From NCBI GenBank assembly GCA_902499925.1, contig GCA_902499925.1_4130.1: DNA of 64,000 nt, one strand, 5' to 3'. Origin of the DNA: Escherichia coli (GTDB taxonomy: Bacteria > Pseudomonadota > Gammaproteobacteria > Enterobacterales > Enterobacteriaceae). This document shows positions 32,998 through 45,855 of this stretch, piece by piece. Every line of letters starts with the position of its first letter. Position 1 is the stretch's first letter. The notes beneath the pieces are model-generated. The model made no database searches, was not told where the DNA came from, and saw only the letters and a program-made list of their open reading frames with translations. A program made the translations under genes and the position numbers.

Positions 32998-33000
32998 TAC

Positions 33001-34030: not shown

Positions 34031-34061
34031 TGTTTTATCTCCTTGAGTTAATGAAACTATA

Positions 34062-34304
34062 TTACAGTACTTTACTATCAATGGCAACTACTTTTTTAAC
34101 ATTAACGGCGTGGATCACTTCCTTCGTGTTTTTAGTACTGAATACTTTCGCCGCACCATTCACGACCGTGATACGATAGCGACCATTAACATCAACCATA
34201 TTAATAAAGTCCGGCGTGCTGAATGGTGTTGTTTTACATTTCAGTACTGTTAACAGTTCCACCAGCGATGTAGTTTCTTTGATACGTTTTTCTAAAGTAA
34301 TCAT
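34062..34304 (-). CDS. Hypothetical protein
   Basis: Start at MITLEKRIKE; track ORF begins at a TTG inside the upstream leader. Confidence 0.6.
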   Translation of the reverse strand: MITLEKRIKETTSLVELLTVLKCKTTPFSTPDFINMVDVNGRYRITVVNGAAKVFSTKNTKEVIHAVNVKKVVAIDSKVL

Positions 34305-34361
34305 TTTGTTTCCCCCGTGTTGGTATGTACATATAGTACTAAAACATTTGAGTACTGTCAA

Positions 34362-34580
34362 TTAGATAATATTATATTTCTTAAAATAAAATGCGTCCTG
34401 TGTTGGTTGATACTCGATACCGTTACCGTTATTGACTTCAACTAATAAACCTTTGTCAATAAGTTTTTTAATAGTACGATACCCTTGTTGAAAATTGGTA
34501 AAATGTGAATCATTACGAAAGGTATAACCGTGCTTAACTGCTTCATCAATAGTTTTCTTTTCGATTTTAGATAATTTCAT
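34362..34580 (-). CDS. Hypothetical protein
   Basis: Start at MKLSKIEKK; upstream leader duplicated from the previous gene. Confidence 0.6.
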   Translation of the reverse strand: MKLSKIEKKTIDEAVKHGYTFRNDSHFTNFQQGYRTIKKLIDKGLLVEVNNGNGIEYQPTQDAFYFKKYNII

Positions 34581-34633
34581 TTTGTTTCTCCCGTGTTGGT
34601 ATATGTACATAGTACTAAAACAATTGAGTACTG

Positions 34634-34888
34634 TCAACGTGATATTAGTTTTATTTTCTTATTATATTGTTGGTGTTCATATAGGTTTATCTTTCCTGTG
34701 TTCTCTATTACTATTCTGTTGTTAGTGTCTACATCGATTACACGCAGTTTTCCGTTGCTTAACTTCCTTGGTAATAGGTTACCATTAATAAACTCATTAG
34801 CAAGCTGTACGGCCTTTGTGATGATTCTCTGAGGTGCTTTATAGTGTACCCGCAAGATATTATCTTTATATAGTTGAACCTTAATCAT
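34634..34888 (-). CDS. Hypothetical protein
   Basis: 84-aa ORF directly after a terminator hairpin. Confidence 0.65.
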   Translation of the reverse strand: MIKVQLYKDNILRVHYKAPQRIITKAVQLANEFINGNLLPRKLSNGKLRVIDVDTNNRIVIENTGKINLYEHQQYNKKIKLISR

Positions 34889-34902
34889 TTTAGTTTATCC
34901 TA

Positions 34903-34928
34903 TAAAAAAGGCGGGAACTGATCCCGCC
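34903..34928 (-). terminator. Rho-independent terminator
   Basis: GGCGGGATCAGTTCCCGCC followed by TTTTTT on minus strand. Confidence 0.6.
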
Positions 34929-34950
34929 GTGTTGTTAGTACTGCAAGTTA

Positions 34951-35346
34951 TTAGATAACCTGGCGGCGTTTACTGTATACTGTTACACGATTACCCTTAC
35001 GGTCGTGTCGGATCTCTTTCTGGTTGCGAATCAGTTCACTTGGACGCTTAAGGTTTGCCAGGTGATCCGCGTGAGTCCAAGCGGTATGGTTTACCTGTAC
35101 TTTGATATCAGAACCAGCGATAAACTCATCTTGTGCGTTAAGTACTGCCGCCAGATCTTCCGCTCGTTTTAGTTCTGCTGCTGTTAGTACTGGCTCAGGT
35201 GAATTCACAATATCAGAGATCTCTTTGAACTGTACGGCCCAACGTTGGCCTTTCGGTGCATCTTTGCCCATGTCTTTAAATGCTGCTCCTTCCTCGCGTG
35301 CAACAATACGGGCAGCTTCACGGGTAGCGTAGAATTTAGTAATCAT
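34951..35346 (-). CDS. Hypothetical protein (paralog of 47602..47865)
   Basis: Shares 'YFATREAARI...FKDMG' and 'DRKGNRVTVY' with 47602..47865; start at MITKFYATRE after AGGA. Confidence 0.65.
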   Translation of the reverse strand: MITKFYATREAARIVAREEGAAFKDMGKDAPKGQRWAVQFKEISDIVNSPEPVLTAAELKRAEDLAAVLNAQDEFIAGSDIKVQVNHTAWTHADHLANLKRPSELIRNQKEIRHDRKGNRVTVYSKRRQVI

Positions 35347-35441
35347 GGTATACATCCTATTAGTTAAGTTAGTACTACAAGTTAGAGTCTATTATAAAGT
35401 ACTATCTGGGCAATGTCAAATAGTACTTTAAATGGATTCTA

Positions 35442-35765
35442 TTACATGTCTTTCTTACGTTTTACATCGTAGTAGCGAACTGTTATTTCTTTGTTAATCT
35501 CTTTTTCGATGTGGTGAATAACTTTTTCTTTCGGGTTGAAACCTATAACGGTTTCTTTAATGATCTCCAAACCAGTGTATTCGCCTTGTGTGCCGTAACC
35601 GTATGTAAAGGTTTCATGTCCCAGGTCTTCCCAGCGGTCGCCAATTAACGCAGACACGTAGCAAGAGTGGTAAGTATTGCCGTGTGAATCAGTCCACCGA
35701 TTAACTTTAATGTCAAAGGAGGTTACAATTTTCAATTCTACTTTCTGGGCAAGGATCATAGCCAT
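35442..35765 (-). CDS. Hypothetical protein (paralog of 42290..42613)
   Basis: Shares 'RWTDSHGNTYHSC.VS' and 'FTYGYG' with 42290..42613. Confidence 0.7.
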   Translation of the reverse strand: MAMILAQKVELKIVTSFDIKVNRWTDSHGNTYHSCYVSALIGDRWEDLGHETFTYGYGTQGEYTGLEIIKETVIGFNPKEKVIHHIEKEINKEITVRYYDVKRKKDM

Positions 35766-35852
35766 TTTTATTTCTCTCTTTTAGTTAGGAGGGGAACCAT
35801 TCCCCTCACTTGATGTAAACTATTATACAGTACTAAGATACTTTGTCAATAC

Positions 35853-36035
35853 TTATTTTTTGGAAAGTTTACGCATTAATTCTACGCTTTCTTGTGAACG
35901 TTTTGCTACCTGGCAAGCTGCATGGACAGTAAACATTTTTGTATAGTCTGACGCTTTGCCACCGAACCGAGCGGCACGTTCACGGGCACTTGGAACTAAT
36001 ACTATTTCTTTCTTGCAGATAGTGCACTTAGCCAT
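35853..36035 (-). CDS. Small Cys-rich (zinc-ribbon-like) protein
   Basis: MAKCTICKK...HAACQ; start set 45 nt inside track ORF. Confidence 0.55.
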   Translation of the reverse strand: MAKCTICKKEIVLVPSARERAARFGGKASDYTKMFTVHAACQVAKRSQESVELMRKLSKK

Positions 36036-36123
36036 TTTTATTTCTCTCTCTTTGTTAGGAGGGGAACCGTTTCCCCTCACTCGATGTAAACTATTATACA
36101 GTACTAAGATACTTTGTCAATAC

Positions 36124-36399
36124 TTAATTATTGTAAATGTCGTGAATAGTGATAAAGTTTTTACGACCGTAAACCTGCAAATCAATATCAATGTAGTGCT
36201 TATCTAGTACATCCTCGACGCTTAACGCGGTGTCGTGGATATCTTCGTAGAATTGAGGATCTACAATCTTGCTTAAGTCATCCGGCGTTAACTTATCGTT
36301 AAGCCATTGAACCGCCTGGATATCTGCTTCACGTTTCCAGTCTTCCAGGTTAGTAGTCAGTACTTGTTCGATTTCGTTAGCTGTCAGTAGAATCCGCAT
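36124..36399 (-). CDS. Hypothetical protein
   Basis: 91-aa ORF downstream of tandem promoters and structured leader. Confidence 0.65.
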   Translation of the reverse strand: MRILLTANEIEQVLTTNLEDWKREADIQAVQWLNDKLTPDDLSKIVDPQFYEDIHDTALSVEDVLDKHYIDIDLQVYGRKNFITIHDIYNN

Positions 36400-36423
36400 T
36401 TTTATGTTTCCTTATCAGTGGTT

Positions 36424-36600
36424 GATGTAAGTATTATACTCTTTTACTTTCTATTGTCAAACTATTTTATCAGGGGAGGTTTTCTTATGTCTTACTCCTG
36501 GACTACTTAACGGGGTTACTTGTTTCGTTCCCCGTCCTGATGTAAAACATTATACTTGATTCTAAGTACAATGCAAGTACTTTTTTAAAAATAGTTTTCA
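36424..36600 (-). promoter_or_regulatory. Tandem promoters flanking a ~70-nt conserved structured leader element
   Basis: Two TTGACA/TTGCAT-N16-17-TATAAT promoters; between them CAGGACGGGGAACGAAAC...CCTCCCCTG, repeated at ~46925-46998. Confidence 0.5.
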
Positions 36601-36614
36601 GTACTAGCCACCAG

Positions 36615-36706
36615 CATATAATAGATACATTTATGCACCCTGTGGGCTGATTTGTTTCTATGCGTATATAATAGCAAAGGGACTGACCGGAGTCAATCCC
36701 TTTTTC
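36615..36706. repeat. Copy C of ~90-bp intergenic repeat
   Basis: TATAATAGATACATTTATGCACCCTGTGGGCT...AAAGGGACTGACCGGAGTCAATCCCTTTTT. Confidence 0.6.
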
Positions 36707-36714
36707 AATTATTT

Positions 36715-36864
36715 TTAAACTTCTTTCGGGTTGCGATAGGTGATAGCGTTCGGGTACATTTGTTTAATGTTATTCCATGCCTGGTTAACATTGTAACCAC
36801 TTGAGCGAATCAGTTGGTTACTACCGACACCTTGAAACACTACTTCGAATAAGAATTCTTTCAT
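36715..36864 (-). CDS. Small hypothetical protein (~49 aa), not in ORF track
   Basis: ATG overlaps stop of upstream gene (ATGA); translation MKEFLFEVVFQGVGSNQLIRSSGYNVNQAWNN... Confidence 0.45.
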   Translation of the reverse strand: MKEFLFEVVFQGVGSNQLIRSSGYNVNQAWNNIKQMYPNAITYRNPKEV

Positions 36865-37034
36865 GCTTTCACCTCGCGATCTGCTTTACCTTTACGCCAG
36901 GACATTACTAATTGTTCGCGTTGCCATAAGTCGAGTGATACAAAAAGTTTTGCGGTATCACTTTTAGGATACTCGCCATTAGTACCTAACCGATAAAACA
37001 GATCTTTCAGTACTGATAATTCTACTTGGATCAT
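36861..37034 (-). CDS. Hypothetical small protein
   Basis: Start at MIQVELSVLKD; track extension is the translated leader hairpin. Confidence 0.55.
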   Translation of the reverse strand: MIQVELSVLKDLFYRLGTNGEYPKSDTAKLFVSLDLWQREQLVMSWRKGKADREVKA

Positions 37035-37120
37035 TATACTTTCCTCTTTGTTGGGAGGGGAACTATTCCCCTCTCGATATAAAACATTATACACTTTATT
37101 CAGTACTGTGCAAGTACTTT

Positions 37121-37333
37121 TTAATCTTTCAGCCAATGATCCTGAATGAATTTTTCGCCGGAACCTTGCTGCATAGATTGTAACAGACGTTCACGATGAG
37201 CGGCGGCGAATTGCTCAGTACTATGCGTTACACCTGGTTGATATCTGGATTCACCATTGGGGGCGATGTATTGTACATCCCACGGTTTTTCGTTAGTATC
37301 AGACCATTTACGAACGATTAGTTGACCTTGCAT
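37121..37333 (-). CDS. Hypothetical protein
   Basis: 70-aa ORF with promoter and GGGGAGAATCATTTCTCCCC leader. Confidence 0.65.
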   Translation of the reverse strand: MQGQLIVRKWSDTNEKPWDVQYIAPNGESRYQPGVTHSTEQFAAAHRERLLQSMQQGSGEKFIQDHWLKD

Positions 37334-37416
37334 TTTTCTTTCCTCTTAGTGGGGAGAATCATTTCTCCCCTTCATGTAAACTATTATACAGTACTAGATT
37401 ATCTTGTCAATAGTTT

Positions 37417-37740
37417 TTATTCACCTTGTTTGAATTTAGTTTTCTCCATTGATTCCATGATTGCAACCAATACACCGTGGATCTCGCTTAACGCGGAATC
37501 ACTAAAAGCATTAATGAATAGTCGATCATTCTCGCGAATATTTTTAATGTACTTTTCAGCAGTAGTTGCGAATTCATTCAACGGTAGATCAAATGCTTTA
37601 TCCCATGATGGATGGCGTAATTGTAACAGTACTGGATTATCACGATCACCAGGGGAAAACGTACCAGTGATGAAACATACGCCCGGAATACTTTCGAACT
37701 GGCAACGGACTTCCTTTGTGATAGTAGTATGAATGTACAT
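37417..37740 (-). CDS. Hypothetical protein
   Basis: 107-aa ORF; GAGGA SD; likely co-transcribed with 37768..37956. Confidence 0.65.
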   Translation of the reverse strand: MYIHTTITKEVRCQFESIPGVCFITGTFSPGDRDNPVLLQLRHPSWDKAFDLPLNEFATTAEKYIKNIRENDRLFINAFSDSALSEIHGVLVAIMESMEKTKFKQGE

Positions 37741-37767
37741 TTATTGTTATCCTCTATTAAATTAATA

Positions 37768-37956
37768 TTACAGTTTATGAATCAATTCTTTATCTAAGCG
37801 ATAGCGTACATTATTAATGGTAACAGCATTATTTTTAATGCTACGCTGTACAGGTCCACCAGCAATAACAAATGTTGCTTTATTACCCCGAACAATGATA
37901 GCACTTCCAGGATTACCGAAATCATCTTGTACTAAAATACTTGATAAGTTTTCCAT
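37768..37956 (-). CDS. Hypothetical protein
   Basis: 62-aa ORF; promoter TTGCAT...TATAGT and leader hairpin upstream. Confidence 0.6.
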   Translation of the reverse strand: MENLSSILVQDDFGNPGSAIIVRGNKATFVIAGGPVQRSIKNNAVTINNVRYRLDKELIHKL

Positions 37957-38034
37957 TTTTATTTCCTCTTAGTAGGGGAAGATGTTTCCCCTTGATGTAA
38001 GTACTATAACAGTACTGAAAACTAAATGCAAGTA

Positions 38035-38391
38035 CTATGATAAAATCATGATAGGATATTCACTATCGATCAGTACCTCGAATCCGAAACCTTCGTACCA
38101 TTCTTTAAGATTAAAGGCGTTATCTTCTCCCGTATCGCATTCTAAGATGATACAATCTGAATCATCAGCGGCATCGATAAAGGCATTCATTAATTCGTTA
38201 CCTTCACCATTGCCCCGACTATCAGGATCAACATAAAGAGAATCAATAAACGCTACACGGTCATAATCAAGATCCGGTGCAATGATTCCACGTTTAACAA
38301 ACCAGTACTGCAATTGTGCTACTTTGCCCTGTACTTGATAGCCAGTGATCTCGCCATTGTCAGTAGTACGCGTGATATGTTGTATTCCCAT
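38035..38391 (-). CDS. Putative GNAT-family N-acetyltransferase-like protein
   Basis: 'IDSLYVDPDSRGNGEGNELMNAF' resembles acetyl-CoA-binding motif A; TTGACA-N16-TATAAT upstream. Confidence 0.55.
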   Translation of the reverse strand: MGIQHITRTTDNGEITGYQVQGKVAQLQYWFVKRGIIAPDLDYDRVAFIDSLYVDPDSRGNGEGNELMNAFIDAADDSDCIILECDTGEDNAFNLKEWYEGFGFEVLIDSEYPIMILS

Positions 38392-38455
38392 GATTACTAT
38401 CCTCAGTTAAGATATAAAACATTATACACTATCTTTCAGTACTGTCAATTACTTT

Positions 38456-38713
38456 TTATCTCATAGATCTATGCCAACAATTACGCGGGGGACGTTTAAA
38501 AGTACTATCATGATCCTCCTGGCAAGTAATGCAGTACATGCACCCTATAACGGCCTGGCGTCGATTCTCAGGGATTTTATCGCCGCAGTCGAGGCAATGT
38601 ACTAGTGATTCTCTTTGTGCGTTAATTTGCTTTCTAGCGTGGTTGACGGCGGCCTGAATCACTGCGTTGATCTCGTCTTGTTCGGCCCCGTCTTTCGCGT
38701 ATCCTACTGCCAT
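38456..38713 (-). CDS. Putative DksA/TraR-type C4 zinc-finger protein
   Basis: 'HCLDCGDKIPENRRQAVIGCMYCITCQ' gives CxxC-N17-CxxC spacing. Confidence 0.55.
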   Translation of the reverse strand: MAVGYAKDGAEQDEINAVIQAAVNHARKQINAQRESLVHCLDCGDKIPENRRQAVIGCMYCITCQEDHDSTFKRPPRNCWHRSMR

Positions 38714-39042
38714 TATTTTAACCTCATTATAAAAATACTATAGTACTGTAATGCTACAATAATACTACTAGTGTTTATCTTATTCAAACCATATGATACT
38801 ACATATCCATCAGCATTACCACGGATAGTAACGCCTTTGTACTGTCTATATAAATTCAACTGCGTATATTGCCTTTGATCAAGAATTGATCAGAATTATA
38901 CGCCTTATGCTAAATTAATCCAGTACTTTTTTGATCATTTATTGATCGATATTATATAGTTACATTTGTGCACCCTATGGGTTAGTGACGTTCTCGTCTT
39001 GATGTAAGTATTATGCCAGTACTGGAGGATATTGTCAATAGA

Positions 39043-39240
39043 TTATTTTAATTTTTTTCTGTCATTGATTAATGCTTTCAGTACTATACTAATAACTTGC
39101 AATGATTCATCAATGACAATGAAATTATTCTCTTTCATTAGATGATAGTTACCATTGATTGTATATTCTAACGAGTACTGTTTACGTTTAATTTTTGATA
39201 ATGTTTCTATTTGTTTTTGTACTGATTTCATGCTAATCAT
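39043..39240 (-). CDS. Hypothetical small protein
   Basis: ORF in AT-rich spacer; start taken at first ATG (track begins at TTG). Confidence 0.35.
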   Translation of the reverse strand: MISMKSVQKQIETLSKIKRKQYSLEYTINGNYHLMKENNFIVIDESLQVISIVLKALINDRKKLK

Positions 39241-39313
39241 TGTCAAACGTCCTGTAACGCATTCTAACGAGATAAACGGTTTAGTACTGGCATTGTATAG
39301 GGTAAATGATTAA

Positions 39314-39339
39314 AGCCCACCAGCGTTAACCAGTGGGCT
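39314..39339 (-). terminator. Rho-independent terminator
   Basis: AGCCCAC-N12-GTGGGCT hairpin followed by T-rich tract on minus strand. Confidence 0.55.
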
Positions 39340-39345
39340 ATAATC

Positions 39346-39489
39346 TTACATCTTGCGGATAATCTTAACAGTATCTTTCACCGATTTACCGTTTTGCTGA
39401 CATTGCTCGATCATCGCGTATTGTTCTGCGGTCAGATCCTCGCCAGTTTTTGCCAGTACTGCGTCGATGAATGAATCCAGTGCGATCAT
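39346..39489 (-). CDS. Small hypothetical protein (~47 aa), not in ORF track
   Basis: Own TTGACA-N16-TATAAT promoter; translation MIALDSFIDAVLAKTGEDLTAEQYAMIEQCQQNGK...; terminator downstream. Confidence 0.45.
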   Translation of the reverse strand: MIALDSFIDAVLAKTGEDLTAEQYAMIEQCQQNGKSVKDTVKIIRKM

Positions 39490-39588
39490 TTTGTTTCTCT
39501 CTTAGGTTAAGTTAACTACTGTTTATAAAACTTATTATACAGTACTATCAAACGTTGTCAATATCTTTAATAGTACTGGTAATATATT

Positions 39589-39768
39589 TTAGCGGTAATC
39601 GTCGTATGCTTTATTCACCTGGCGAATGTAACTTTCAAAGGCTTCGTCTACCGTTTCATACTCCCGAACATAATCACCATAGGAAACTACATACATACCT
39701 TTTTGATCTTCAAACGTCATGATGATAGAATCCAGGCCGATGATTTCAGTTTTTGCGATGATAGCCAT
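39589..39768 (-). CDS. Hypothetical small protein
   Basis: Start at MAIIAKTEII after AAGGA; upstream TTGACA-N17-CATAAT. Confidence 0.55.
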   Translation of the reverse strand: MAIIAKTEIIGLDSIIMTFEDQKGMYVVSYGDYVREYETVDEAFESYIRQVNKAYDDYR

Positions 39769-39850
39769 TTTTAATTCCTTAGTAGTGTAGTTGATAAAAG
39801 TTATTATGCCAGTACTATCAATCAGTGTCAATAGTACTGTGATAATATTT

Positions 39851-40063
39851 TTAGTTAATGATAGTCAGTGTAAAATTGTAATCCCCTGCCTGGTATAGTA
39901 CTTTGTCGCCGAACGTTCCAACACGTTTCATATTGCAATAGATACCCATAACACTTTTTACATCTTTGATATTCCGAACGCCAGTAATATCCTTGTTTAA
40001 ATGATCGTGATCAGAAAATAAAACTTGTTTTGCATTTTTCAGTACAGTGCAGATATTAGCCAT
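39851..40063 (-). CDS. Hypothetical protein
   Basis: 70-aa ORF; promoter and GGGGAGAATCATTTCTCCCC leader. Confidence 0.6.
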   Translation of the reverse strand: MANICTVLKNAKQVLFSDHDHLNKDITGVRNIKDVKSVMGIYCNMKRVGTFGDKVLYQAGDYNFTLTIIN

Positions 40064-40157
40064 TTTGTTTTCTCTCTGTTAGTGGGGAGAATCATTTCTC
40101 CCCTTGATGTAAACTATTATACAGTACTATAATCTATTGTCAAACTATTTTTTTATA

Positions 40158-40499
40158 TTATTCGAAATCTTCTGGACCGGACTGATAATCATCTTCACCG
40201 TATGCACTTTCTAACCGCTCACCAGTGTGATCATCAGTTAGTGAGTCATCCTCATAGTTCACGTCTACGCCAGTGATGTAAAACTGGCTATCGTCTGGAT
40301 CATTGAAATTAATTTTTTGGATGTTTACAATAACTGTATTGATACCCAGGACACCGCCATCAGCCGTTACAAAGTACTGATAGTTTTCGCAACCGCCTGA
40401 ATTGAAACCGTAATTAATTTCGGCCCGACCATCATTTAAACGCAGTGCCTGGGCGATGATTTCATTTTCAAAGTTAGATTGAGCAATTGAGATAGTCAT
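40158..40499 (-). CDS. Hypothetical acidic protein
   Basis: 113-aa ORF with promoter TTGCAA-N16-TATAAT and GGGGAAACGGTTTCCCC leader. Confidence 0.65.
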   Translation of the reverse strand: MTISIAQSNFENEIIAQALRLNDGRAEINYGFNSGGCENYQYFVTADGGVLGINTVIVNIQKINFNDPDDSQFYITGVDVNYEDDSLTDDHTGERLESAYGEDDYQSGPEDFE

Positions 40500-40623
40500 G
40501 ATTTGTTTCCTTATTACCAGGGGAAACCGTTTCCCCTTTCGATGTAAAACATTATACGCTTATTGAGATAGTTTGCAAGTACTTTCTACAAATACTTTTA
40601 AAATAGTTTTCAGTACTCAAACA

Positions 40624-40727
40624 TTATATAATAGATACACTTATGCACCCTGTGGGCTAGTGAGCTATCTCTCAATGAATATATAATAGCAAAATGGCTG
40701 ACCGGAGTCAACCACTTTTTTCATTTA
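40624..40727. repeat. Copy D of ~90-bp intergenic repeat
   Basis: TATAATAGATACACTTATGCACCCTGTGGGCTAGTGAGC...AAAATGGCTGACCGGAGTCAACCACTTTTTT. Confidence 0.6.
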
Positions 40728-40864
40728 TTTTTAGCTTTTAGAATCGCCGCCTTTCGCGTCATGCCTTGCTTGATGTATTCCTGTACTTTCGCTTTACGTG
40801 CATTCGCTTTATTTGCTTTCGTAAACGCCGAACAACTTTTATAATTTAAGCCTGTTGGATTCAT
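40721..40864 (-). CDS. Small basic hypothetical protein (~47 aa), not in ORF track
   Basis: Start directly after stop of upstream ORF (TAAATG); Lys-rich; followed by terminator hairpin. Confidence 0.4.
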   Translation of the reverse strand: MNPTGLNYKSCSAFTKANKANARKAKVQEYIKQGMTRKAAILKAKNK

Positions 40865-40954
40865 TTAAATCACCATAAAGAATAGATAGGTTACTAACAA
40901 TGCCGCGATCAATGCACCGACCAGGGCCGAACTATAGTAAGCTAATGATTTCAT
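40865..40954 (-). CDS. Small hydrophobic peptide (~29 aa), not in ORF track
   Basis: ATGA overlap with upstream gene; MKSLAYYSSALVGALIAALLVTYLFFMVI is a single predicted TM helix. Confidence 0.4.
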   Translation of the reverse strand: MKSLAYYSSALVGALIAALLVTYLFFMVI

Positions 40955-41103
40955 TTTTTAGCCTGAAAGTAATGTTTAATTTGAGCGGCGGTCAGTGCAC
41001 AATTACGCAGGAAGTTTTCTGTATAACTGCGGCGAGTACTGAAAGAGAATTGACCTTTGCCGTTACCGATAGTAACATCAAACCGAGCGTTGTATTGTTT
41101 CAT
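40951..41103 (-). CDS. Hypothetical small protein
   Basis: Start at MKQYNARF after GGAG; track extension is promoter/hairpin. Confidence 0.5.
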   Translation of the reverse strand: MKQYNARFDVTIGNGKGQFSFSTRRSYTENFLRNCALTAAQIKHYFQAKK

Positions 41104-41184
41104 TTTGTTTCTCCTGTTATTGGGGAGAATCATTTCTCCCCTTCATGTAAAACATTATACAGTACTAAAAACTAATTGCAAGTA

Positions 41185-41331
41185 CTATTTTTTAGATTTA
41201 CGCAAACTTTCTACCATCTCAGGAGTAAGGCCAGGCGGGTAGAAAACCACTTCATCAACGAAACGTAAAGGGAATACCCCATCTAAGGTTGAACGTGCTT
41301 TCTTGTTAGTACTCTTTTTTGATGCTTTCAT
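41185..41331 (-). CDS. Small basic hypothetical protein (~48 aa), not in ORF track
   Basis: Own promoter (TTGCAA-N16-TATAAT), GGGGAGAA leader and TAAGGAA SD; MKASKKSTNKKARSTLDGVFPLRF... Confidence 0.5.
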   Translation of the reverse strand: MKASKKSTNKKARSTLDGVFPLRFVDEVVFYPPGLTPEMVESLRKSKK

Positions 41332-41400
41332 TTCATATTCCTTAATTAGTGGGGAGAATCATTTCTCCCCTTCATGTAAAACATTATACGCGTTTAAAAA

Positions 41401-41610
41401 CTAATTGCAAGTACTATTTGAAAGTAAATGCTCATACGCTGCATTAACTACGTTTTCAATAACCGACTGTACAGAAAGATCCCCCACGGCCTGGCTATAG
41501 TAGAAATCGCTTACAGTGGTGTCATCGTATGCAAATACTTTACCAGGTACTGCATCAATCACATACATATTAACCTTTAAGATGTCGATCTTATCCTGTA
41601 CAGTAAGCAT
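41401..41610 (-). CDS. Hypothetical protein
   Basis: 69-aa ORF. Confidence 0.6.
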   Translation of the reverse strand: MLTVQDKIDILKVNMYVIDAVPGKVFAYDDTTVSDFYYSQAVGDLSVQSVIENVVNAAYEHLLSNSTCN

Positions 41611-41615
41611 ATTAA

Positions 41616-41888
41616 TTAACCTTTTAAGTACTGGCTTAAGTAGTCTTGTTGATCTTCGGTGATTGCAGCCATCTTCCCTAGTACTGGATTGATGATATAA
41701 TCCCCTGTAACGTCCTGTAACGCATTCTCAGGCGGTTTAACGGCTGGGGTAGCCATAGCCATTGCCTGGACTTGTTCGACGCTGTAACGCTCATAAAGGC
41801 GGCATTCTTCCGGTGTTAACATAGCATCAGTACGCTTCATCGGTTTAATGATGCTTTCGATCTCATTCAGTACTTGATTAACGTTCAT
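41616..41888 (-). CDS. Hypothetical protein
   Basis: 90-aa ORF. Confidence 0.65.
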   Translation of the reverse strand: MNVNQVLNEIESIIKPMKRTDAMLTPEECRLYERYSVEQVQAMAMATPAVKPPENALQDVTGDYIINPVLGKMAAITEDQQDYLSQYLKG

Positions 41889-41939
41889 GGTATAATCCCC
41901 AATATAAGCGGCCTGAATCGACCGCTAACGATGTTTTGA

Positions 41940-42209
41940 TTAATAGGTGTATGGTTGACGCTCAAACAATGATTGCACGTTGTACGCCCCGCTTATGGGC
42001 TTCGCTGGTAAATCAATTTTATATTGTTCACGCTTAAAGATAATAAAACGGCAATTGTTTTTAACATCAAAATTGATTGAACGTTCCAGGAGTTTTCCAT
42101 CGTGCACAAATACAAGATAACCGCTTGCTACTTGTTTTGTAGTACTGGTTGCAACCATAGACCGACGAACATGTGTACCTGCATCGATTAAAGTACTGAT
42201 ATTTTTCAT
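41940..42209 (-). CDS. Hypothetical protein
   Basis: 89-aa ORF. Confidence 0.65.
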   Translation of the reverse strand: MKNISTLIDAGTHVRRSMVATSTTKQVASGYLVFVHDGKLLERSINFDVKNNCRFIIFKREQYKIDLPAKPISGAYNVQSLFERQPYTY

Positions 42210-42289
42210 TATACGATCCTCTTAAGTTAATTTAATTTCTTTCCCCTATGCAGACACTATATCAAAGTATCTGCATAAAGTAAAGCTAA

Positions 42290-42613
42290 TTAAAGATCTT
42301 TTTTGCGTTTAACATTCTGTACAGTACAATGCAACGGGATATTAAGATCATTGCACAAACGAGTAAGGGAGGTTTCATCAGTATTAAGCCCGTCTACTGA
42401 TTCCTTTAAGAGAGATAACGCCGTTTGTTGATATGCATCTTCATAGCCATAAGTAAATGATTCAACCGCCAGATCATTCAAACCGTTATCCAGTTCAACG
42501 CTTACATGACAAGAATGATAAGTATTGCCATATGAATCAGTCCAACGTTTACCGTCAACATTGATTGCACGGATTGCAGCCAGGGAAACGGTGTTAATGA
42601 TAGTTTTAGCCAT
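42290..42613 (-). CDS. Hypothetical protein (paralog of 35442..35765)
   Basis: Shares 'RWTDSYGNTYHSCHVS' and 'FTYGYE'. Confidence 0.7.
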   Translation of the reverse strand: MAKTIINTVSLAAIRAINVDGKRWTDSYGNTYHSCHVSVELDNGLNDLAVESFTYGYEDAYQQTALSLLKESVDGLNTDETSLTRLCNDLNIPLHCTVQNVKRKKDL

Positions 42614-42702
42614 TTTTGTATTCCTTAAATTAATATGTTGTCTTGATAAAATCTATTATGCCAGTACTATCAAACTATGTCAATAGTACTGTGATAATAT
42701 TT

Positions 42703-42846
42703 TTACTTACTTTTTTCTTTCTTTATTACTTCCACCTGGTCGGCCCATTCTTTACCCCATACTTGTAAATTATAATGGTACTGGCAAAGAGCAACGCCCC
42801 GCTTTAAACCCGTAATAGATTTCTGACCACATTGACAAGTTTTCAT
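42703..42846 (-). CDS. Small Cys-containing hypothetical protein (~47 aa), not in ORF track
   Basis: Own promoter and GGGGAGAACCATTTCTCCCC leader; MKTCQCGQKSITGLKRGVALCQYHYNLQVW... Confidence 0.45.
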   Translation of the reverse strand: MKTCQCGQKSITGLKRGVALCQYHYNLQVWGKEWADQVEVIKKEKSK

Positions 42847-42932
42847 TTTAGTTTCCTTGTAGTGGGGAGAACCATTTCTCCCCTTGATGTAATGTATTAT
42901 ACTTTATTCGATTTACTTTGCAAGTACTTTTT

Positions 42933-43160
42933 TTAATTTAATTCATCAAGGCAAAGGATACGCTCAACGCCCAAATCAGTTAAACTAATCGACGGCACTT
43001 GATAGGTTTCAATGTATGCTACACTTGCCCACTGACCGAACTCATTAACGGCCCAGGTATTCATTGCATTTTGCAATTCCGCACCTTCCTTGTTGGTAAT
43101 GACTGCAACTACTTGTTCGTTGCCAGTAGTACCAGATACGCGAGTAATGATAATAGCCAT
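42933..43160 (-). CDS. Hypothetical protein
   Basis: Start at MAIIITRVSG; track extension is promoter/hairpin. Confidence 0.65.
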   Translation of the reverse strand: MAIIITRVSGTTGNEQVVAVITNKEGAELQNAMNTWAVNEFGQWASVAYIETYQVPSISLTDLGVERILCLDELN

Positions 43161-43397
43161 TGTTTTGATTCCTTTGATTTGGAAGGAGAACCGTTTCCCC
43201 CTCTCGATGTAAAACATTATACGCTAATCTCTTAATCGTGCAAGTACTTTTTATTACTTTTTGCAAAATACTTTAAACGCTCTCAATCGCATTACAACGA
43301 CCTTAACGCCACCAGCTAGGGCAATTGCATCAGATAATCAGTTTAATGCGTTAGAATCGTTTCTAGGCGGTGCTGGTGGCCTGGTAAACGATAAACA

Positions 43398-43425
43398 CAA
43401 AAAAGCCCACCATTTAAGGTGGGCT
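43398..43425 (-). terminator. Rho-independent terminator
   Basis: AGCCCACC-ttaaat-GGTGGGCT followed by TTTTTT on minus strand, just 3' of gene 43447..43929. Confidence 0.65.
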
Positions 43426-43446
43426 AGTGATTCAGTACTTTAATTG

Positions 43447-43929
43447 TTATGCTTCAACTTTGCGATGAGCTTCGATCCATTCCTCGCGAGTCATACCGCT
43501 GGAGTTAATCGCATCCAGTACTACAGCAATGCAGTTACCACGCACCGGAATCAGATATTCTTCCCCGTTGTCCAGTACTACCGCTACGCGTTCCTGAATC
43601 CATTTTTTTGCTTTTACTTCTGGCTTATCTTCCCCGTACTTAACCGCCAGGGCTTTTTGTGCCATCTCTGTAACTACTTCCAGATCCAGCCCAACTACTG
43701 CCGCCTGAATACTTTCAATTGTTGCTTGCAGTTCTGCTTCACGGGCCGCTTTCGCCGCTTCAATTTCTGCCGCTTTATTTGCTTGTAGTTCTTTCGCAGT
43801 ACTGTACGCGATGTTAAAATTATTGCGTACCGCTTTCATGGTATCGTTGTCCAGTTCAGCCAGGATCTCAGCCGCGACGTTAGTTTCATTTGCTACCAGT
43901 GCTTTGATGAATGATTTTACATTAGCCAT
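43447..43929 (-). CDS. Hypothetical protein with Ala/Glu-rich predicted coiled-coil region
   Basis: Start at MANVKSFIK; central 'AKELQANKAAEIEAAKAAREAELQATIESIQAA'. Confidence 0.7.
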   Translation of the reverse strand: MANVKSFIKALVANETNVAAEILAELDNDTMKAVRNNFNIAYSTAKELQANKAAEIEAAKAAREAELQATIESIQAAVVGLDLEVVTEMAQKALAVKYGEDKPEVKAKKWIQERVAVVLDNGEEYLIPVRGNCIAVVLDAINSSGMTREEWIEAHRKVEA

Positions 43930-44134
43930 TTTATAAATCCTCAATTAAAGTTTAGTTTACGTTTATTAGTGTATCAAAGTTTTCTCGACGTGTCCAGTTT
44001 TTCGTTCGACTTACTGGCGGTCTACTTAGTGCTCCCCGTCTTGATGTAATACATTCTACGCCTTTTTGCGGTAATGTCAACTACTTTTTTTAAAACTATT
44101 TTCAAAGTATCTCAGTACTACGATACTATAAAAA

Positions 44135-44161
44135 CAAAAAAGCCCACTGTATAAGTGGGCT
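44135..44161 (-). terminator. Rho-independent terminator
   Basis: AGCCCAC-ttataca-GTGGGCT followed by T-run on minus strand, 3' of gene 44179..44478. Confidence 0.6.
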
Positions 44162-44178
44162 AGTGATTCAGTACTAGA

Positions 44179-44478
44179 TTATAAACAGTTAATTACTCCG
44201 GTGTGCGTTACTTTCTCAGTATCCATTACAGTGACCGAACCGCGTTTAGTACTTGCATCGTAATAAATTGTCGTGCTACCTTTTTCGTCTTCTTCATGGA
44301 ACGGGCCGCTTTTAAATGCTTCTGGCTGGATCTCTAAATCCTTTAAAACAATCTCGCCAGTACTTTCATTGGTCATCGCTACAGTGCACTGAATGAATTT
44401 TTCATTACTTACATCTAACGACGCATTAACAGCGAAAGAGGAAACAGATAAAGCCAGGGCGATGATTGCAATTTTCAT
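44179..44478 (-). CDS. Putative secreted/periplasmic protein
   Basis: N-terminus MKIAIIALALSVSSFAVNA-SLDV looks like a signal peptide. Confidence 0.7.
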   Translation of the reverse strand: MKIAIIALALSVSSFAVNASLDVSNEKFIQCTVAMTNESTGEIVLKDLEIQPEAFKSGPFHEEDEKGSTTIYYDASTKRGSVTVMDTEKVTHTGVINCL

Positions 44479-44562
44479 TTGATTATCCTTAGTTACCAGG
44501 GGGAACCGCTCCCCCTTGCGATGTAAAATATTATACAGTTCTAAAAACTATTATCAAGTACT

Positions 44563-44799
44563 TTATGATTTTTTATAAAACATTTCAGCAGTGATATTTT
44601 TACCCGTTGGCTGTACTTTATCCAGGATTTTTTGATGTCCAGGCCGACCAAATGAATATGATCCGTAAACCGTAAACCAGTAGTTACCCTCAGTGTTTAC
44701 ATGTACAGCACAATAAGGAACACCACGCGATTCATCACTAGTAAAGTGTGATACCGTTCCCGTTACATTCGCAGACGTTGATTTGATTTGTTCGAGCAT
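44563..44799 (-). CDS. Hypothetical protein
   Basis: 78-aa ORF with leader hairpin GGGGAACCACTCCCC. Confidence 0.6.
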   Translation of the reverse strand: MLEQIKSTSANVTGTVSHFTSDESRGVPYCAVHVNTEGNYWFTVYGSYSFGRPGHQKILDKVQPTGKNITAEMFYKKS

Positions 44800-44906
44800 T
44801 TTCTTATTCCTTAGTTACCAGGGGAACCACTCCCCTATGCAAAACATTATACGCGTTTAAAAACTAATTGCAAGTATTTTAATAAAAAGTATTTGAAAAA
44901 TAGTTG

Positions 44907-44935
44907 TTGACAAGTGCATCCAGTACTGGCATAAT
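44907..44935 (+). promoter_or_regulatory. Plus-strand sigma70-like promoter (TTGACA-N17-CATAAT) with no downstream ORF
   Basis: Hexamers read on plus strand; followed by CCCACCGGGTGC motif and a hairpin. Confidence 0.5.
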
Positions 44936-44941
44936 TACTAC

Positions 44942-45045
44942 ATAAAGACAAAACAGTCTCTAACCCACCGGGTGCCGAGATCCGTCTATTAAATGATTCA
45001 GTACTGAAAAAGTAACGGGGAGTTATTATCTCCCCGCGTTGTTAT
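44942..45045 (+). ncRNA. Candidate small RNA (promoter-to-terminator unit ~100 nt)
   Basis: Begins after promoter at 44907-44935; contains CCCACCGGGTGC; ends at CGGGGAG-ttattat-CTCCCCG hairpin followed by T-rich tract. Confidence 0.35.
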
Positions 45046-45263
45046 TTGGTAAGGTATAAACAGAAGTCACCTTTATTTGCTACGCCGCCAGTGTAACGCG
45101 ATGAATAGTTAGAAACGTCCTGGACTTCTGCTATTACCAGTGTATCATCATTCATTTCGTCGCAGAAGCAAACGGCTGGATCTTGTACGCCGATTTTGTC
45201 GGCATGTTCCCGCATAGATTTAACCAGTGCTTCCAGTTGGGAAAGAGTAGTGATATTAGCCAT
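45042..45263 (-). CDS. Hypothetical protein
   Basis: Start at MANITTLSQ; track extension is leader. Confidence 0.65.
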   Translation of the reverse strand: MANITTLSQLEALVKSMREHADKIGVQDPAVCFCDEMNDDTLVIAEVQDVSNYSSRYTGGVANKGDFCLYLTK

Positions 45264-45349
45264 TTTATTTTCCTCATTACCAGGGAGAACCATTTCTCCC
45301 TTTGATGTAAACCATTATACAGTACTGAAAACTAATTGCAAGTACTTTT

Positions 45350-45553
45350 TTAATTTAATTGCTTTAAAACATACTCAAAGACACCACGCACATCATTGAT
45401 CATCGCCTGGCGGTTAGCAGGTAACGCATCAGGATCGCCACTATCCCAGGCATTGATAAAACTCCCCAAATCATGATAGATTTTATTCTGTAAGCCGATT
45501 AACTGCAATTCTTTTTCTTCAAGCTCTTTGATACGTTCAATTAAATCACTCAT
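45350..45553 (-). CDS. Hypothetical protein
   Basis: Start at MSDLIERIKE after GAGGA. Confidence 0.6.
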   Translation of the reverse strand: MSDLIERIKELEEKELQLIGLQNKIYHDLGSFINAWDSGDPDALPANRQAMINDVRGVFEYVLKQLN

Positions 45554-45570
45554 TAGATAATCCTCAGTAC

Positions 45571-45855
45571 TTAACTGTAAGATCCGCAACGGTCGCAGTA
45601 GTGCCCGTCCTCGTCATCGTCAACGAATTGACCGACGAAATGATCTACTTTCGCTTTCAGGTTATTATAATCGTTTTCTACTTCCGTTAAACGCTTCTGG
45701 TAGTATTCCAGTGCTTTAAGATATGCCGCATCAGCAGTTTTCTCCTGCATAGCTAAATTCATGCCACGCGTTTCATCGTACAGCCAAAAACCATCGGTGC
45801 ACTCACTGATTGACAATGATTTACTTAACACATTGTACTTTATTACTTTACTCAT
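45571..45855 (-). CDS. Hypothetical protein with C-terminal CxxC
   Basis: Start at MSKVIKYNVL after GAGGA; C-terminal 'HYCDRCGSYS'. Confidence 0.65.
   Translation of the reverse strand: MSKVIKYNVLSKSLSISECTDGFWLYDETRGMNLAMQEKTADAAYLKALEYYQKRLTEVENDYNNLKAKVDHFVGQFVDDDEDGHYCDRCGSYS

Follow-up and report, generated by a model that had tools for sequence, protein, structure and literature searches.

The question raised by this stretch of DNA (the window, 64,000 nucleotides) was whether the small open reading frames (ORFs) on its minus strand between positions 36,715 and 42,846 are genuine genes and, if so, what their products, in particular a hydrophobic peptide of 29 amino acids, might do. Seven such ORFs had been proposed in the initial annotation and all were present in the ORF list at the same coordinates, with matching lengths and sequences; they are designated A and C to H here, B being an additional ORF (Table 1). 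The window is derived from an Asteriusvirus (PBECO4/121Q-like) jumbo E. coli phage, with 96.9% identity over 6.5 kb to JNE01 and fEgEco12, and it matched 81 records, mostly Asteriusvirus.

Table 1. Small ORFs and expression signals of the region (window coordinates)
Feature	Position	Strand	Details
ORF A	36715..36864	-	49 aa; ATG overlaps stop of upstream 57-aa gene (ATGA); SD GAGGTGA
Hairpin just 3' of ORF A	36676..36703	-	same terminator-like hairpin as 3' of ORF D, with embedded -35; terminator annotated in G17
ORF B	38713..38859	-	48 aa; TTG start; stop overlaps start of DksA-like gene
ORF C	39346..39489	-	47 aa; acidic; predicted helical; monocistronic unit
ORF C promoter	39534..39561	-	TTGACA-16-TATAAT, without leader hairpin
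Hairpin just 3' of ORF C	39314..39339	-	AGCCCAC..GTGGGCT; orthologous site annotated as an ARNOLD terminator in G17
ORF D	40721..40864	-	47 aa; net charge +10.5; last gene of trio
Hairpin just 3' of ORF D	40691..40718	-	terminator-like; -35 (TTGACT) in stem; orthologous site annotated as terminator in G17
ORF E	40865..40954	-	29 aa, MKSLAYYSSALVGALIAALLVTYLFFMVI; single-helix hydrophobic; ATG overlaps TGA of F
ORF F	40951..41103	-	50 aa; basic; first gene of trio
F-E-D cassette	41104..41181	-	-35 41181-41176; -10 41159-41154; AGGAG 41115-41111
F-E-D leader hairpin	41141-41122	-	GGGGAGAAATGATTCTCCCC; MFE -13.9 kcal/mol
ORF G	41185..41331	-	48 aa; basic termini
ORF G cassette	41332..41410	-	-35 41410-41405; -10 41388-41383; hairpin 41370-41351
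ORF H	42703..42846	-	47 aa; Cys3His motif (C4, C6, C21, H24)
ORF H cassette	42847..42923	-	-35 42923-42918; -10 42901-42896; hairpin 42883-42864

The ORFs had been described as missed by the ORF track. They are indeed left out there, only because that track has a 60-aa cut-off, but they are not a discovery: all seven are annotated as hypothetical-protein CDSs in GenBank relatives, in fEgEco12 as g036, g027, g023, g022, g021, g020 and g015, while 121Q has gp300, gp291, gp287, gp286 and gp280 among the seven. Peptide E is annotated in phAPEC6 as gp520c and is without annotation in about half of the records inspected. These Asteriusvirus proteins are the same genes as those of the window (87-100% amino acid identity, same order and context), which differs from the other genomes in a slightly different set of cassettes and otherwise in nothing of substance.

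As 133 ORFs of at least 20 aa were listed in 8.5 kb of this AT-rich DNA, the presence of an ORF is uninformative by itself, and it is the comparative test that lifts these above chance. In-frame conservation among relatives, the test by which the initial annotation could have been refuted, was assessed in 13 related genomes. Every copy of the ORFs was intact and ungapped, with no stops or indels, in each relative carrying it; the variable sites at codon positions 1/2/3 summed to 32/25/100 (binomial p=7.7e-15), and pN/pS was 0.04-0.25 in frame vs 0.7-6.5 in the other two frames. A pN/pS of 0.04 was obtained for A (intact in 11 relatives; variable sites 2/1/12), C (13 relatives; 2/1/10) and D (11/5/27), with values of 0.09 for F, 0.17 for E (4/1/8, p=0.035 alone), 0.18 for H and 0.25 for G (intact in 8 relatives). 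The relatives are 92-97% identical, so that the number of variable sites behind any one ORF is small (7-22). Two ORFs of a repeated non-coding element (40610-40711 and 36585-36677), used as a negative control, had no codon periodicity.

Random open frames in AT-rich DNA between genes or in leaders, conserved through close kinship or through signals at the DNA or RNA level, would be suggested by the abundance of such frames and the closeness of the relatives, and spurious small CDSs have been called nearby: the JP4 and SD phages are annotated with ORFs over the non-coding element, and the A73 annotation over the homologue of H is in the wrong frame. This explanation retains hardly any probability, as the codon-position and cross-genus comparisons in effect refute it. 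The substitutions are strongly frame-specific, whereas the control ORFs fail this codon-position test; no copy of the seven carried a stop or indel; and for A, C, F and H, homologous proteins with 44-67% identity persist in other genera whose DNA no longer matches. The seven ORFs are almost certainly real translated genes. No transcript, ribosome-profiling or peptide evidence for them was found in the literature on Asteriusvirus.

Expression signals flank the genes, and the promoters, leader hairpins, Shine-Dalgarno sequences (SDs) and ATGA couplings named in the initial annotation were all present on the sequence; together with the frame-specific substitutions, they bear out its view that the small ORFs are genuine and carry expression signals of their own. 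F, G and H are each preceded by TTGCAA-16-TATAAT, 12 nt, a hairpin GGGGAGAAATG(A/G)TTCTCCCC and then an SD. As the hairpin begins 12 nt after the -10 box, the transcript carries it in its 5' leader; the hairpin has no U-run, which makes terminator activity doubtful. An in-frame ATG in the hairpin loop causes the mechanical ORF of F to extend to 41133, and 41103 is the start behind the SD and also the start annotated in relatives. The ATG of D follows directly on the TAA of E, behind GGTGA, and the hairpin 3' of D opens the repeated non-coding element. The promoter and terminator claimed for C were both located, its 3' hairpin being a likely terminator, which a simple scan did not call because its T-run is weak. 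There were 27 consensus promoters on the minus strand between 31.4 and 50.0 kb, ~19 of them with a G-rich hairpin, and repeat families D1-D7 cover these same cassettes.

The arrangement suggests small expression cassettes in which a near-consensus sigma-70 promoter would be recognised by the host RNA polymerase in its unmodified form. Usually a GGGG..CCCC leader hairpin comes 12 nt behind the -10 box, ahead of an SD, and a cassette serves either a single gene or, as for F-E-D, a short translationally coupled operon. A similar system is formed by the PeSL and ORFan cassettes of T4-type phages (Arbiol et al. 2010, PMC2839356; Comeau et al. 2014, PMC4122927), which share the strong sigma-70-like promoter with A/T-rich upstream tract, the adjacent GGGG..CCCC stem-loop, the SD and the small ORFan, as well as multiple repetition across a plastic region whose early genes are non-essential, and the presence/absence differences between close relatives. 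In one PeSL subclass the stem-loop lies downstream of the -10 box, as here (PMC2839356, PMC4122927). The cassettes differ from those of T4-type phages in belonging to a Rak2-like jumbo phage, in a region inside the direct terminal repeat, and in the fixed position of the hairpin. Neither PeSL paper (PMC2839356, PMC4122927) mentions 121Q, PBECO4, RaK2 or GAP32.

The cassettes are mobile. G and H occur in only some Asteriusvirus genomes, a 93-nt ORF of G17 and 121Q corresponds to a bare cassette in the window, and in the Vequintavirinae phage A73 a homologue of H stands behind a nearly identical promoter, hairpin and SD cassette. The cassette flanks, repeated ~20 times, probably act as recombination linkers like the T4 PeSLs, which would explain both the presence/absence pattern among relatives and a whole H cassette in another phage subfamily.

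The small genes lie inside the ~21-kb direct terminal repeat (DTR). That of fEgEco12 is 20,993 bp (PMC13070987), the orthologous block lies at 1,630-13,692 of the fEgEco12 record, and homologues of these genes are covered by the DTR features of vB_Ec-M-J, Muenster and fENko-Kae01. In the Rak2-like phage CBB, a stretch of short ORFs rich in RpoD promoters and running into the terminal repeat was proposed as the early region (PMC5259590). The small genes of the window are likely to be early genes as well, with products that may be accessory micro-proteins synthesised during the first minutes after infection. The pre-early genes of phage T5 are comparable in being small and mostly of unknown function, with strong host-type promoters, and in both phages they lie in a long direct terminal repeat, and are therefore present twice per genome; there is no sequence relationship between the two sets. 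The T5 genes, transferred in the first step, serve host shut-off; two-step DNA transfer is not known in Asteriusvirus. Taken together, the seven ORFs, probably along with B, are best explained as bona fide Asteriusvirus genes in early cassettes, a reading that we consider likely.

Four of the seven ORFs matched PHROG families without known function end to end (E<=1e-21): A phrog_37188 (E=3e-40), C phrog_34103 (E=4e-37), D phrog_29913 (E=1e-21) and F phrog_7119 (E=7e-28). The PHROG profile search gave no match for G and none that was convincing for E or H, and no functional match for the small ORFs was obtained in Pfam, NCBIfam, PADLOC, PDB sequence or fold searches. Homologues of A were found in Klebsiella phages RaK2, K64-1 and Muenster (51-53% identity), and of C in Salmonella PHA46/7t3 and Klebsiella fENko-Kae01 (67% identity). 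D is confined to Asteriusvirus, with two N-terminal alleles, and G to 25 Asteriusvirus records, while others, 121Q and PBECO4 among them, lack it; both proteins are highly basic. F has 51 homologues, in Alcyoneusvirus, Vequintavirinae and CR3-like phages, and its AF2 model (pLDDT 92.8; b4-a2-b topology) predicts a compact b-sheet plus two-helix protein; fold searches gave no significant match for it. The label 'tail fiber protein' given to ORF C in fEgEco12 found no support in this analysis. In the same repeat region fEgEco12 has a neighbouring gene labelled 'protein spackle'.

The ORF noted in the initial annotation as Cys-containing, H, carries a Cys3His motif. All its homologues share C4, C21 and H24, 16/17 have C6, and the pattern CxCG.KS..GL.RGVALCQ.HYN is strongly conserved; homologues also occur in ~20 coliphages of 137-155 kb (A73 among them) and one Aeromonas phage. 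H (AF2 model, pLDDT 89) is a candidate Cys3His zinc knuckle. When H (CQCGKKSITGLKRGVALCQYHY) was aligned with the N-terminal Cys3His zinc finger of TtuA-type tRNA thiolases (PDB 5gha, 5b4e; CKVCGQKAQVEMRSRGLALCREHY), the same ligand order and the same RG-(V/L)-ALC-x-x-HY core were seen.

The middle ORF of the trio had been read as a single-helix hydrophobic peptide, and E does have a maximum 19-residue Kyte-Doolittle mean of 2.69 and an N-terminal Lys; no other micro-ORF on the window's coding strand is hydrophobic. E was present in 35/35 Asteriusvirus records, and in the 13 relatives in which its sequence was compared it was intact, with conservative changes only (K2R, S3T, L11V, V12I, L15M). 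A coupled 38-aa hydrophobic ORF was intact in 9/9 Alcyoneusvirus (Klebsiella, K64-1-like) records (70-100% identity; gp442 in RefSeq K64-1), and metagenomic contigs L018/L019 have a diverged 33-aa counterpart, in L018 likewise translationally coupled. In composition-controlled shuffle tests E was similar to the L018 peptide (p=6e-4) and the latter to that of Muenster (p=1.6e-3); there was no direct similarity between E and the K64-1 peptide (p=0.67), so that their homology rests on the bridging L018. An E-like peptide is thus retained across genera. Its linkage to F is not universal: other F lineages continue with a promoter cassette or a soluble 59-aa ORF, rV5-like and CR3 phages have no such peptide, and in KP13-7 the peptide is kept and F replaced.

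E is squeezed between its neighbours, overlapping F by 4 nt and leaving no gap before D, and its partners vary between lineages, as might be expected of a functionless spacer or coupling device passing ribosomes from F to D. We regard this as improbable given the amino acid constraint (in-frame pN/pS, purely conservative hydrophobic changes) and the persistence of single-helix hydrophobicity and a small-xxx-small pattern in three lineages despite large divergence; moreover, other F lineages are without any spacer ORF, and Alcyoneusvirus keeps the peptide where the upstream gene is swapped. The SD of E itself is weak, and translation may therefore be low. This weakness, the -1 frame of E relative to F and the overlap of its ATG with the TGA of F straight after AAAAAA could also reflect a -1 slip on the A6 run (GCT AAA AAA TGA -> ATG AAA TCA...), giving F with a C-terminal membrane anchor. 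Such a fusion is very improbable, as the geometry is not conserved: K64-1 has AAG AAA TAA TG, RCIP0023 and Muenster a TTG start overlapping TGA, the L018 peptide lies in the +1 frame 1 nt after TAA, and that of KP13-7 lies behind a different gene. An own start codon, superfluous for a fusion, is kept in every version, and ATGA and TAATG overlaps are ordinary termination-reinitiation coupling.

As a separate peptide, E is probably membrane-inserted; it would cross the inner membrane as one helix with Lys2 cytoplasmic. A10/G13/A14/A17/A18 would form a small-xxx-small face, which makes it most likely that E packs against another transmembrane helix, whether in a second copy of E or in a membrane protein of host or phage. 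Small single-pass membrane proteins of E. coli and phages are alike in length (about 20-50 aa), in having a single hydrophobic helix with a positive N-terminus, and in their small-xxx-small packing motifs; they include the regulators KdpF, AcrZ, MgtS and PmrR, the type I toxins IbsC, ShoB and TisB, and the T4 superinfection-exclusion proteins Imm and Sp. Neither sequence nor profile comparison linked E to any of them.

In size, in its N-terminal Lys and in the almost wholly hydrophobic remainder, E resembles Ibs- and ShoB-type toxins. It might instead be a self-assembling, membrane-damaging peptide of type I toxin or holin/pinholin type, depolarising the host early without a specific partner, and the small-xxx-small motif could equally drive self-association. 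This is unlikely, since E matched no toxin, holin or bacteriocin family in the database searches, has neither a charged or amphipathic face nor a C-terminal charged tail, and lies in the early region rather than a lysis cassette; its promoter also ranks among the strongest early ones, in a phage that depends on an energised host throughout a latent period which, for a jumbo phage, is probably long. Any one specific target would be doubtful at best. Host takeover, superinfection exclusion, anti-defence and membrane-targeting roles are conceivable for the small proteins, and the suggestion in the initial annotation that such peptides are host-targeting or membrane-active has location as its one argument (sigma-70 promoters, the early region, the terminal repeat).

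ORF B, outside the list of the initial annotation, is a probable extra small gene. It is less certain because its SD is weak; its 5' third varies among relatives, and its pN/pS of 0.19 comes from 4 sequences only. It matched phrog_38664 (E=1e-31) and is annotated as 121Q gp293 and fEgEco12 g029.

Over its full length, the 36500-43000 interval shares 96.9% identity with Escherichia phages vB_EcoM_JNE01 and fEgEco12, and the search matched 81 phage records, mostly Asteriusvirus (PBECO4, 121Q, G17, phAPEC6, SP27 and others), a group of Rak2-like jumbo myoviruses of approximately 350 kb. [quoted passage not shown] A block of small genes spans ~31.4 to 50.0 kb and, judged from the records of relatives, the whole of it lies within the direct terminal repeat (DTR). 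The DTR of fEgEco12 is 20,993 bp (PMC13070987) and the orthologous match in that record is at 1,630-13,692; the DTR features of vB_Ec-M-J, Muenster and fENko-Kae01 take in homologues of these small genes. In the Rak2-like phage CBB, a run of short ORFs rich in RpoD promoters and reaching into the terminal repeat has been proposed as the early, host-takeover region (PMC5259590). The minus strand of the block carries 27 near-consensus sigma-70 promoters of the type TTG(A/C)(C/A)A-16/17-TATAAT and, on the good grounds of these promoters, the DTR location and the CBB proposal, we infer early expression by host RNA polymerase. A literature search found no transcriptomic, proteomic, ribosome-footprint or peptide data for Asteriusvirus early genes, and an Rfam scan of 30-50 kb gave no relevant match.

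Seven minus-strand ORFs (A and C to H in the table) had been listed in the initial annotation as plausible genes below 60 aa missed by the ORF track. Listing ORFs mechanically down to 20 aa reproduced their coordinates and sequences; for F the list reached 41133 (60 aa) due to an in-frame ATG in the loop of the leader hairpin, the start annotated in relatives being that at 41103, behind AGGAG. With 133 ORFs of this size (>=20 aa) in 8.5 kb of AT-rich DNA, an open frame alone is worthless as evidence, and the ORFs were therefore compared with the orthologous blocks of 13 relatives (loci L001-L013). All full-length copies of the seven ORFs in these relatives were ungapped and open, a result extended by tblastn to 24-45 records. 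Variable sites showed a summed excess at the third codon position (binomial P =7.7e-15), and pairwise pN/pS was 0.04-0.25 in the proposed frame, against 0.7-6.5 when the same DNA was read in either of the other two frames. In-frame conservation among relatives, which had been proposed as the test of these genes, was observed in every copy, with selection specific to the frame. The explanation that these are chance ORFs is contradicted by this frame-specific substitution pattern and is refuted; on the same pattern, the seven ORFs are coding genes. Two negative-control ORFs in a repeated non-coding element gave flat counts without codon periodicity. Plus-strand ORFs showing a third-position excess are antisense shadows of minus-strand genes. 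ORF B, which was not on the initial list, has a TTG start, matches phrog_38664 and is probably an eighth small gene, less secure than the others. The orthologues of the control ORFs (30-33 aa, within the repeated element 3' of A and D) are annotated as CDSs in JP4 and Salmonella SD phages; the control ORFs were rejected as coding genes for their lack of codon periodicity, and the CDS annotations are probably spurious.

Features of the early region, with the number of variable sites at codon positions 1/2/3 among relatives
Feature	Position (nt)	Strand	Length	Variable sites 1/2/3
ORF A	36715-36864	minus	49 aa	2/2/12
ORF B	38713-38859	minus	48 aa	
ORF C	39346-39489	minus	47 aa	2/1/10
ORF D (trio, last)	40721-40864	minus	47 aa	11/5/27
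ORF E (trio, middle)	40865-40954	minus	29 aa	4/1/8
ORF F (trio, first)	40951-41103	minus	50 aa	6/5/16
ORF G	41185-41331	minus	48 aa	2/7/11
ORF H	42703-42846	minus	47 aa	5/4/16
A and C-H summed				32/25/100
Control ORF	40610-40711	minus		4/3/5
Control ORF	36585-36677	minus		12/8/11
107-aa paralogue	35442-35765	minus	107 aa	
107-aa paralogue	42290-42613	minus	107 aa	
CxxC...HxxC protein gene	35853-36035	minus	60 aa	
MIQVELSV gene	36861-37034	minus	57 aa	
~30-nt motif	near 47204, 40663, 38988, 36653, 33379, 31122	minus		
~30-nt motif	near 44957, 47122, 49273	plus		
Candidate small-RNA unit	44907-45047	plus	~100 nt	
Promoter of small-RNA unit	44907-44935	plus		
Gene convergent with small-RNA unit	45042-45293	minus		

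The seven ORFs were indeed absent under the 60-aa cut-off of the ORF track, but all are annotated CDSs ("hypothetical protein") in public relatives; that they were "missed" is thus an effect of the cut-off and not a gap in knowledge. In fEgEco12 they are annotated as g036, g027, g023, g022, g021, g020 and g015, and in 121Q annotations are found as gp300, gp291, gp287, gp286 and gp280. ORF E lacks annotation in roughly half of the relatives inspected, and some records carry spurious frames instead. It is called as a CDS in fEgEco12, JP4, phAPEC6 (gp520c) and Salmonella SD phages, and is unannotated in JNE01, G17, 121Q, PBECO4, SP27, CRJP21 and UB, though an 86-nt gap is present and the frame is open. 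Full-length PHROG profile matches, all to families of unknown function, were obtained for A (phrog 37188, 3e-40), C (34103, 4e-37), D (29913, 1e-21) and F (7119, 7e-28); G and H had no PHROG match and E none that was convincing (only phrog_32088, E =0.005). There was no significant match for any of the eight peptides in Pfam, NCBIfam or PADLOC, including small-toxin, holin, bacteriocin and defence-related families. Sub-threshold matches were rejected for F (SAM_SMF), D (aureocin A53, E =0.03 and 14 bits against a cut-off of 27; permease prefix domain) and B (IscR), as was the label "tail fiber protein" on the fEgEco12 orthologue of C, which had no support in this analysis. As hypothetical proteins, the seven are already known and annotated in a phage genus that is itself known; the finding, while real, is ordinary and of little weight as a discovery of "missed genes". 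With a 60-aa cut-off, about one gene in three goes unseen in phage early regions of this kind, and public annotations carry such genes unevenly. The modest added value lies in a micropeptide family across Rak2-like genera, PeSL-like cassettes in a jumbo phage and cassette transfer between phage families.

The promoter, leader, Shine-Dalgarno (SD) and coupling context that had been claimed for the small ORFs is present in the sequence. F, G and H each follow TTGCAA-16-TATAAT, with the hairpin GGGGAGAAATG(A/G)TTCTCCCC (-13.9 kcal/mol) 12 nt on, then an SD and the ATG. ORF C has its own promoter, a perfect TTGACA-16-TATAAT, and a downstream hairpin that the annotators of G17 call a terminator. 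A is ATGA-coupled as described, its ATG overlapping the upstream stop behind GAGGTGA, and the trio forms a coupled F-E-D operon in which the ATG of E overlaps the TGA of F and that of D directly follows the TAA of E, behind GGTGA. The SD is weak for E and B, and E depends on its ATGA overlap with F. Approximately 19 of the 27 minus-strand promoters are followed by a G-run/C-run hairpin of -11 to -16 kcal/mol, and the repeat finder grouped these cassettes into families D1-D7, with 5-8 copies each within 8.5 kb. The terminator scan did not call the leader hairpins on the minus strand, because they have no U-run.

Promoter-early stem-loop (PeSL) cassettes of T4-type phages consist of a strong early promoter, a GGGG..CCCC stem-loop and an SD before ORFans in hyperplastic regions, and were proposed by their authors to be recombination linkers (PMC2839356); Rak2-like phages are unmentioned in both PeSL papers (PMC2839356, PMC4122927). 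The window shares with the T4-type cassettes the strong sigma-70-like promoter, A/T-rich upstream tract, G-run/C-run stem-loop and SD, repeated upstream of ORFans, and here too close relatives differ by insertion, deletion or replacement at the cassettes. G and H each occur in only some Asteriusvirus genomes, a bare cassette stands in the window in place of a 93-nt ORF of G17 and 121Q, and the Vequintavirinae phage A73 carries a homologue of H (~83% aa identity) behind essentially the same promoter, hairpin and SD. These observations would fit a recombination-linker role, and the comparison shows a predicted cassette shared between phage families. The PeSL-like architecture, together with the apparent transfer of one whole cassette between phage families, extends the T4 "modular shuffling" picture to Rak2-like jumbo phages. 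Two paralogous 107-aa genes ~6.8 kb apart (…RWTDSHGNTYHSC.VS… / …RWTDSYGNTYHSCHVS…; DNA repeat family D11) are evidence for duplication inside this plastic region. The 57-aa gene beginning MIQVELSV and the 60-aa CxxC...HxxC protein beginning MAKCTICKK are annotated in relatives as 174 and 183 nt, respectively; the ORF list inflates them to 91 and 75 aa due to in-frame upstream TTG/GTG codons inside the promoter cassette.

The middle ORF of the trio, E, had been described as encoding a hydrophobic, single-helix membrane peptide, and its maximum 19-residue Kyte-Doolittle mean of 2.69 (residues 11-29) agrees with this. The peptide has a GRAVY of 1.78, a small-xxx-small pattern and Lys2 as its sole charged residue, and is predicted to insert into the membrane; the coding strand of the whole window holds no other hydrophobic micro-ORF. 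It was found in 35/35 Asteriusvirus records at >=90% identity and was undetectable by tblastn outside the genus. In Klebsiella phage K64-1, a homologue of F (~54% identity, tblastn) is followed by a TAATG-coupled 38-aa hydrophobic ORF (gp442 in RefSeq), which is in turn ATGA-coupled to a 101-aa gene. In Alcyoneusvirus, 9/9 records carry the 38-aa ORF intact, down to 70% identity, with an ATG or TTG start that always adjoins the upstream stop, and metagenomic contigs bearing a 72%-identical F homologue encode a 33-aa hydrophobic counterpart. The counterparts likewise have one bilayer-length segment with flanking positive charge, with maximum 19-residue means of 2.69 (K64-1) and 2.55 (metagenomic contig L018). 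In composition-preserving shuffles, similarity was significant between E and the L018 intermediate (P =6e-4) and between the intermediate and the Klebsiella peptides (P =0.0016 and 0.01); it was not significant between E and the K64-1 peptide directly. We take E, the Klebsiella-phage peptides and the metagenomic counterpart to be members of a single, fast-diverging micropeptide family, and the comparisons show this putative membrane peptide to be kept across genera.

An obligate pairing of F and E was rejected, as other F lineages, in which a promoter cassette or a soluble 59-aa ORF follows F, are without the peptide, and the peptide persists in KP13-7 although F is missing; no peptide is found in rV5-like and CR3 phages. 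In KP13-7 (Alcyoneusvirus; L027, 1-620) the 3' end of a 333-aa gene stands in place of the F homologue, and the peptide (ATG start) and downstream 101-aa gene are kept, which suggests that in Klebsiella phages the stable partner of the peptide is the 101-aa gene and not F. The 101-aa gene was looked for in the window and is absent. Slippage into the -1 frame on the A6 run before the F stop could in principle fuse F and E, but such a fusion is unlikely: no other lineage has this geometry, and a separate start codon is retained in each version of the peptide. It is also unlikely that E serves merely as a coupling spacer, given the constraint at the amino-acid level and the retention of the helix, and a self-assembling depolarising toxin is possible but not favoured.

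The other small proteins were compared with sequence and structure databases. F has 51 homologues, all unnamed, and its AF2 model (pLDDT 92.8) has four strands, two helices and a final strand. In a profile search against PDB sequences F weakly matched helices 2-3 of homeodomains (best E =0.001); a homeodomain-like helix-turn-helix was not adopted and is only a lead, because the key DNA-contact residue is unconserved. H has a Cys3His arrangement in which C4, C21 and H24 are invariant and C6 is found in 16/17 sequences (Y in one cluster representative), within a motif, CxCG.KS..GL.RGVALCQ.HYN, kept down to ~40% identity (38-45% in an Aeromonas-phage-like lineage). Among solved sequences, the N-terminal zinc finger of TtuA came nearest to H, but without significance (E =0.14). 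A homologue of H is an unannotated ORF in the Aeromonas Casjensviridae phage 13AC503A (L029, ~693-854). In A73 (L030, OP778609.1) the H homologue is at 701-844, in another frame than the annotated CDS at 717-890 (A73_32); the CDS called over this conserved, putative Cys3His micro-gene appears to be in the wrong frame. Two basic proteins, D (net charge +10.5) and G, occur in Asteriusvirus only. Homologues of A extend to Alcyoneusvirus and those of C to Salmonella and Klebsiella jumbo phages; both gave only noise against PDB sequences.

In the mechanism we propose, host RNA polymerase would fire the cassette promoters once the terminal-repeat DNA is in the cell, and each short transcript would probably be stabilised or insulated by the hairpin fixed at its 5' end. 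Translation would begin at the SD, and in the trio termination-reinitiation would carry ribosomes through F, E and D in turn; the products would be accessory micro-proteins. E would insert in the inner membrane with its small-residue face packed against another transmembrane helix, H would bind zinc, and F, D and G probably bind a macromolecular partner; the timing of expression and every target are what we infer. The earlier suggestion that the small ORFs encode putative host-targeting or membrane-active factors is reasonable. The region offers a compact set of experimental candidates, conserved micro-proteins behind strong promoters at a site where genes for host takeover would be expected. 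Among them are a predicted membrane micropeptide kept in two jumbo-phage genera, a widespread 50-aa fold (F), and a putative zinc-knuckle protein (H) common to Vequintavirinae and a Casjensviridae (Aeromonas) phage. A wider reading, which we put forward tentatively and consider rather unlikely as a whole, is that E and its Klebsiella-phage and metagenomic counterparts form a fast-diverging family of ~30-40-aa inner-membrane micropeptides of the terminal-repeat early region of Rak2-like jumbo phages, whose target would be one particular membrane protein of the host or the phage (so as to block, for example, superinfection, a transporter or a membrane-bound defence sensor), and that the promoter-hairpin cassettes act as an integron-like shuttle moving micro-genes between unrelated coliphage families. 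If true, the E family would be a new class of phage membrane effector.

Further repeated elements were observed in the early region. The hexamer AGTACT recurs at fixed sites in the early promoters (31400-50050, minus strand), where it extends over the upstream edge of the -35 (AAAGTACTTGCAA), lies directly beside the -10 (CAGTACTGTATAAT), or does both, and the same pattern is seen in K64-1; it may be a candidate site for a regulator switching early promoters off, or part of an UP or extended -10 element. A ~30-nt motif, CTA[GA]CCC-A[CT][AC]-GGGTGC-N6-8-TGTA.CTAT, occurs in nine copies on both strands, all within the early region, and is also found in K64-1. In the five copies examined with their flanks it lies 25-30 nt downstream of a TTGAC[AT]-17-[CT]AT[AT]AT promoter. 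It had no Rfam match, and could act as RNA, in the form of a boxB/nut-like hairpin with a 4-bp stem and a 3-nt loop of variable sequence, or as DNA, in the form of a box bound by a phage transcription factor (middle promoter). One copy lies in a candidate small-RNA unit on the strand opposite the genes, in which the promoter TTGACA-17-CATAAT is followed by the motif and then by the hairpin GGGGAGTTATTATCTCCCC with a T-tail; this hairpin would also terminate the convergent minus-strand gene.
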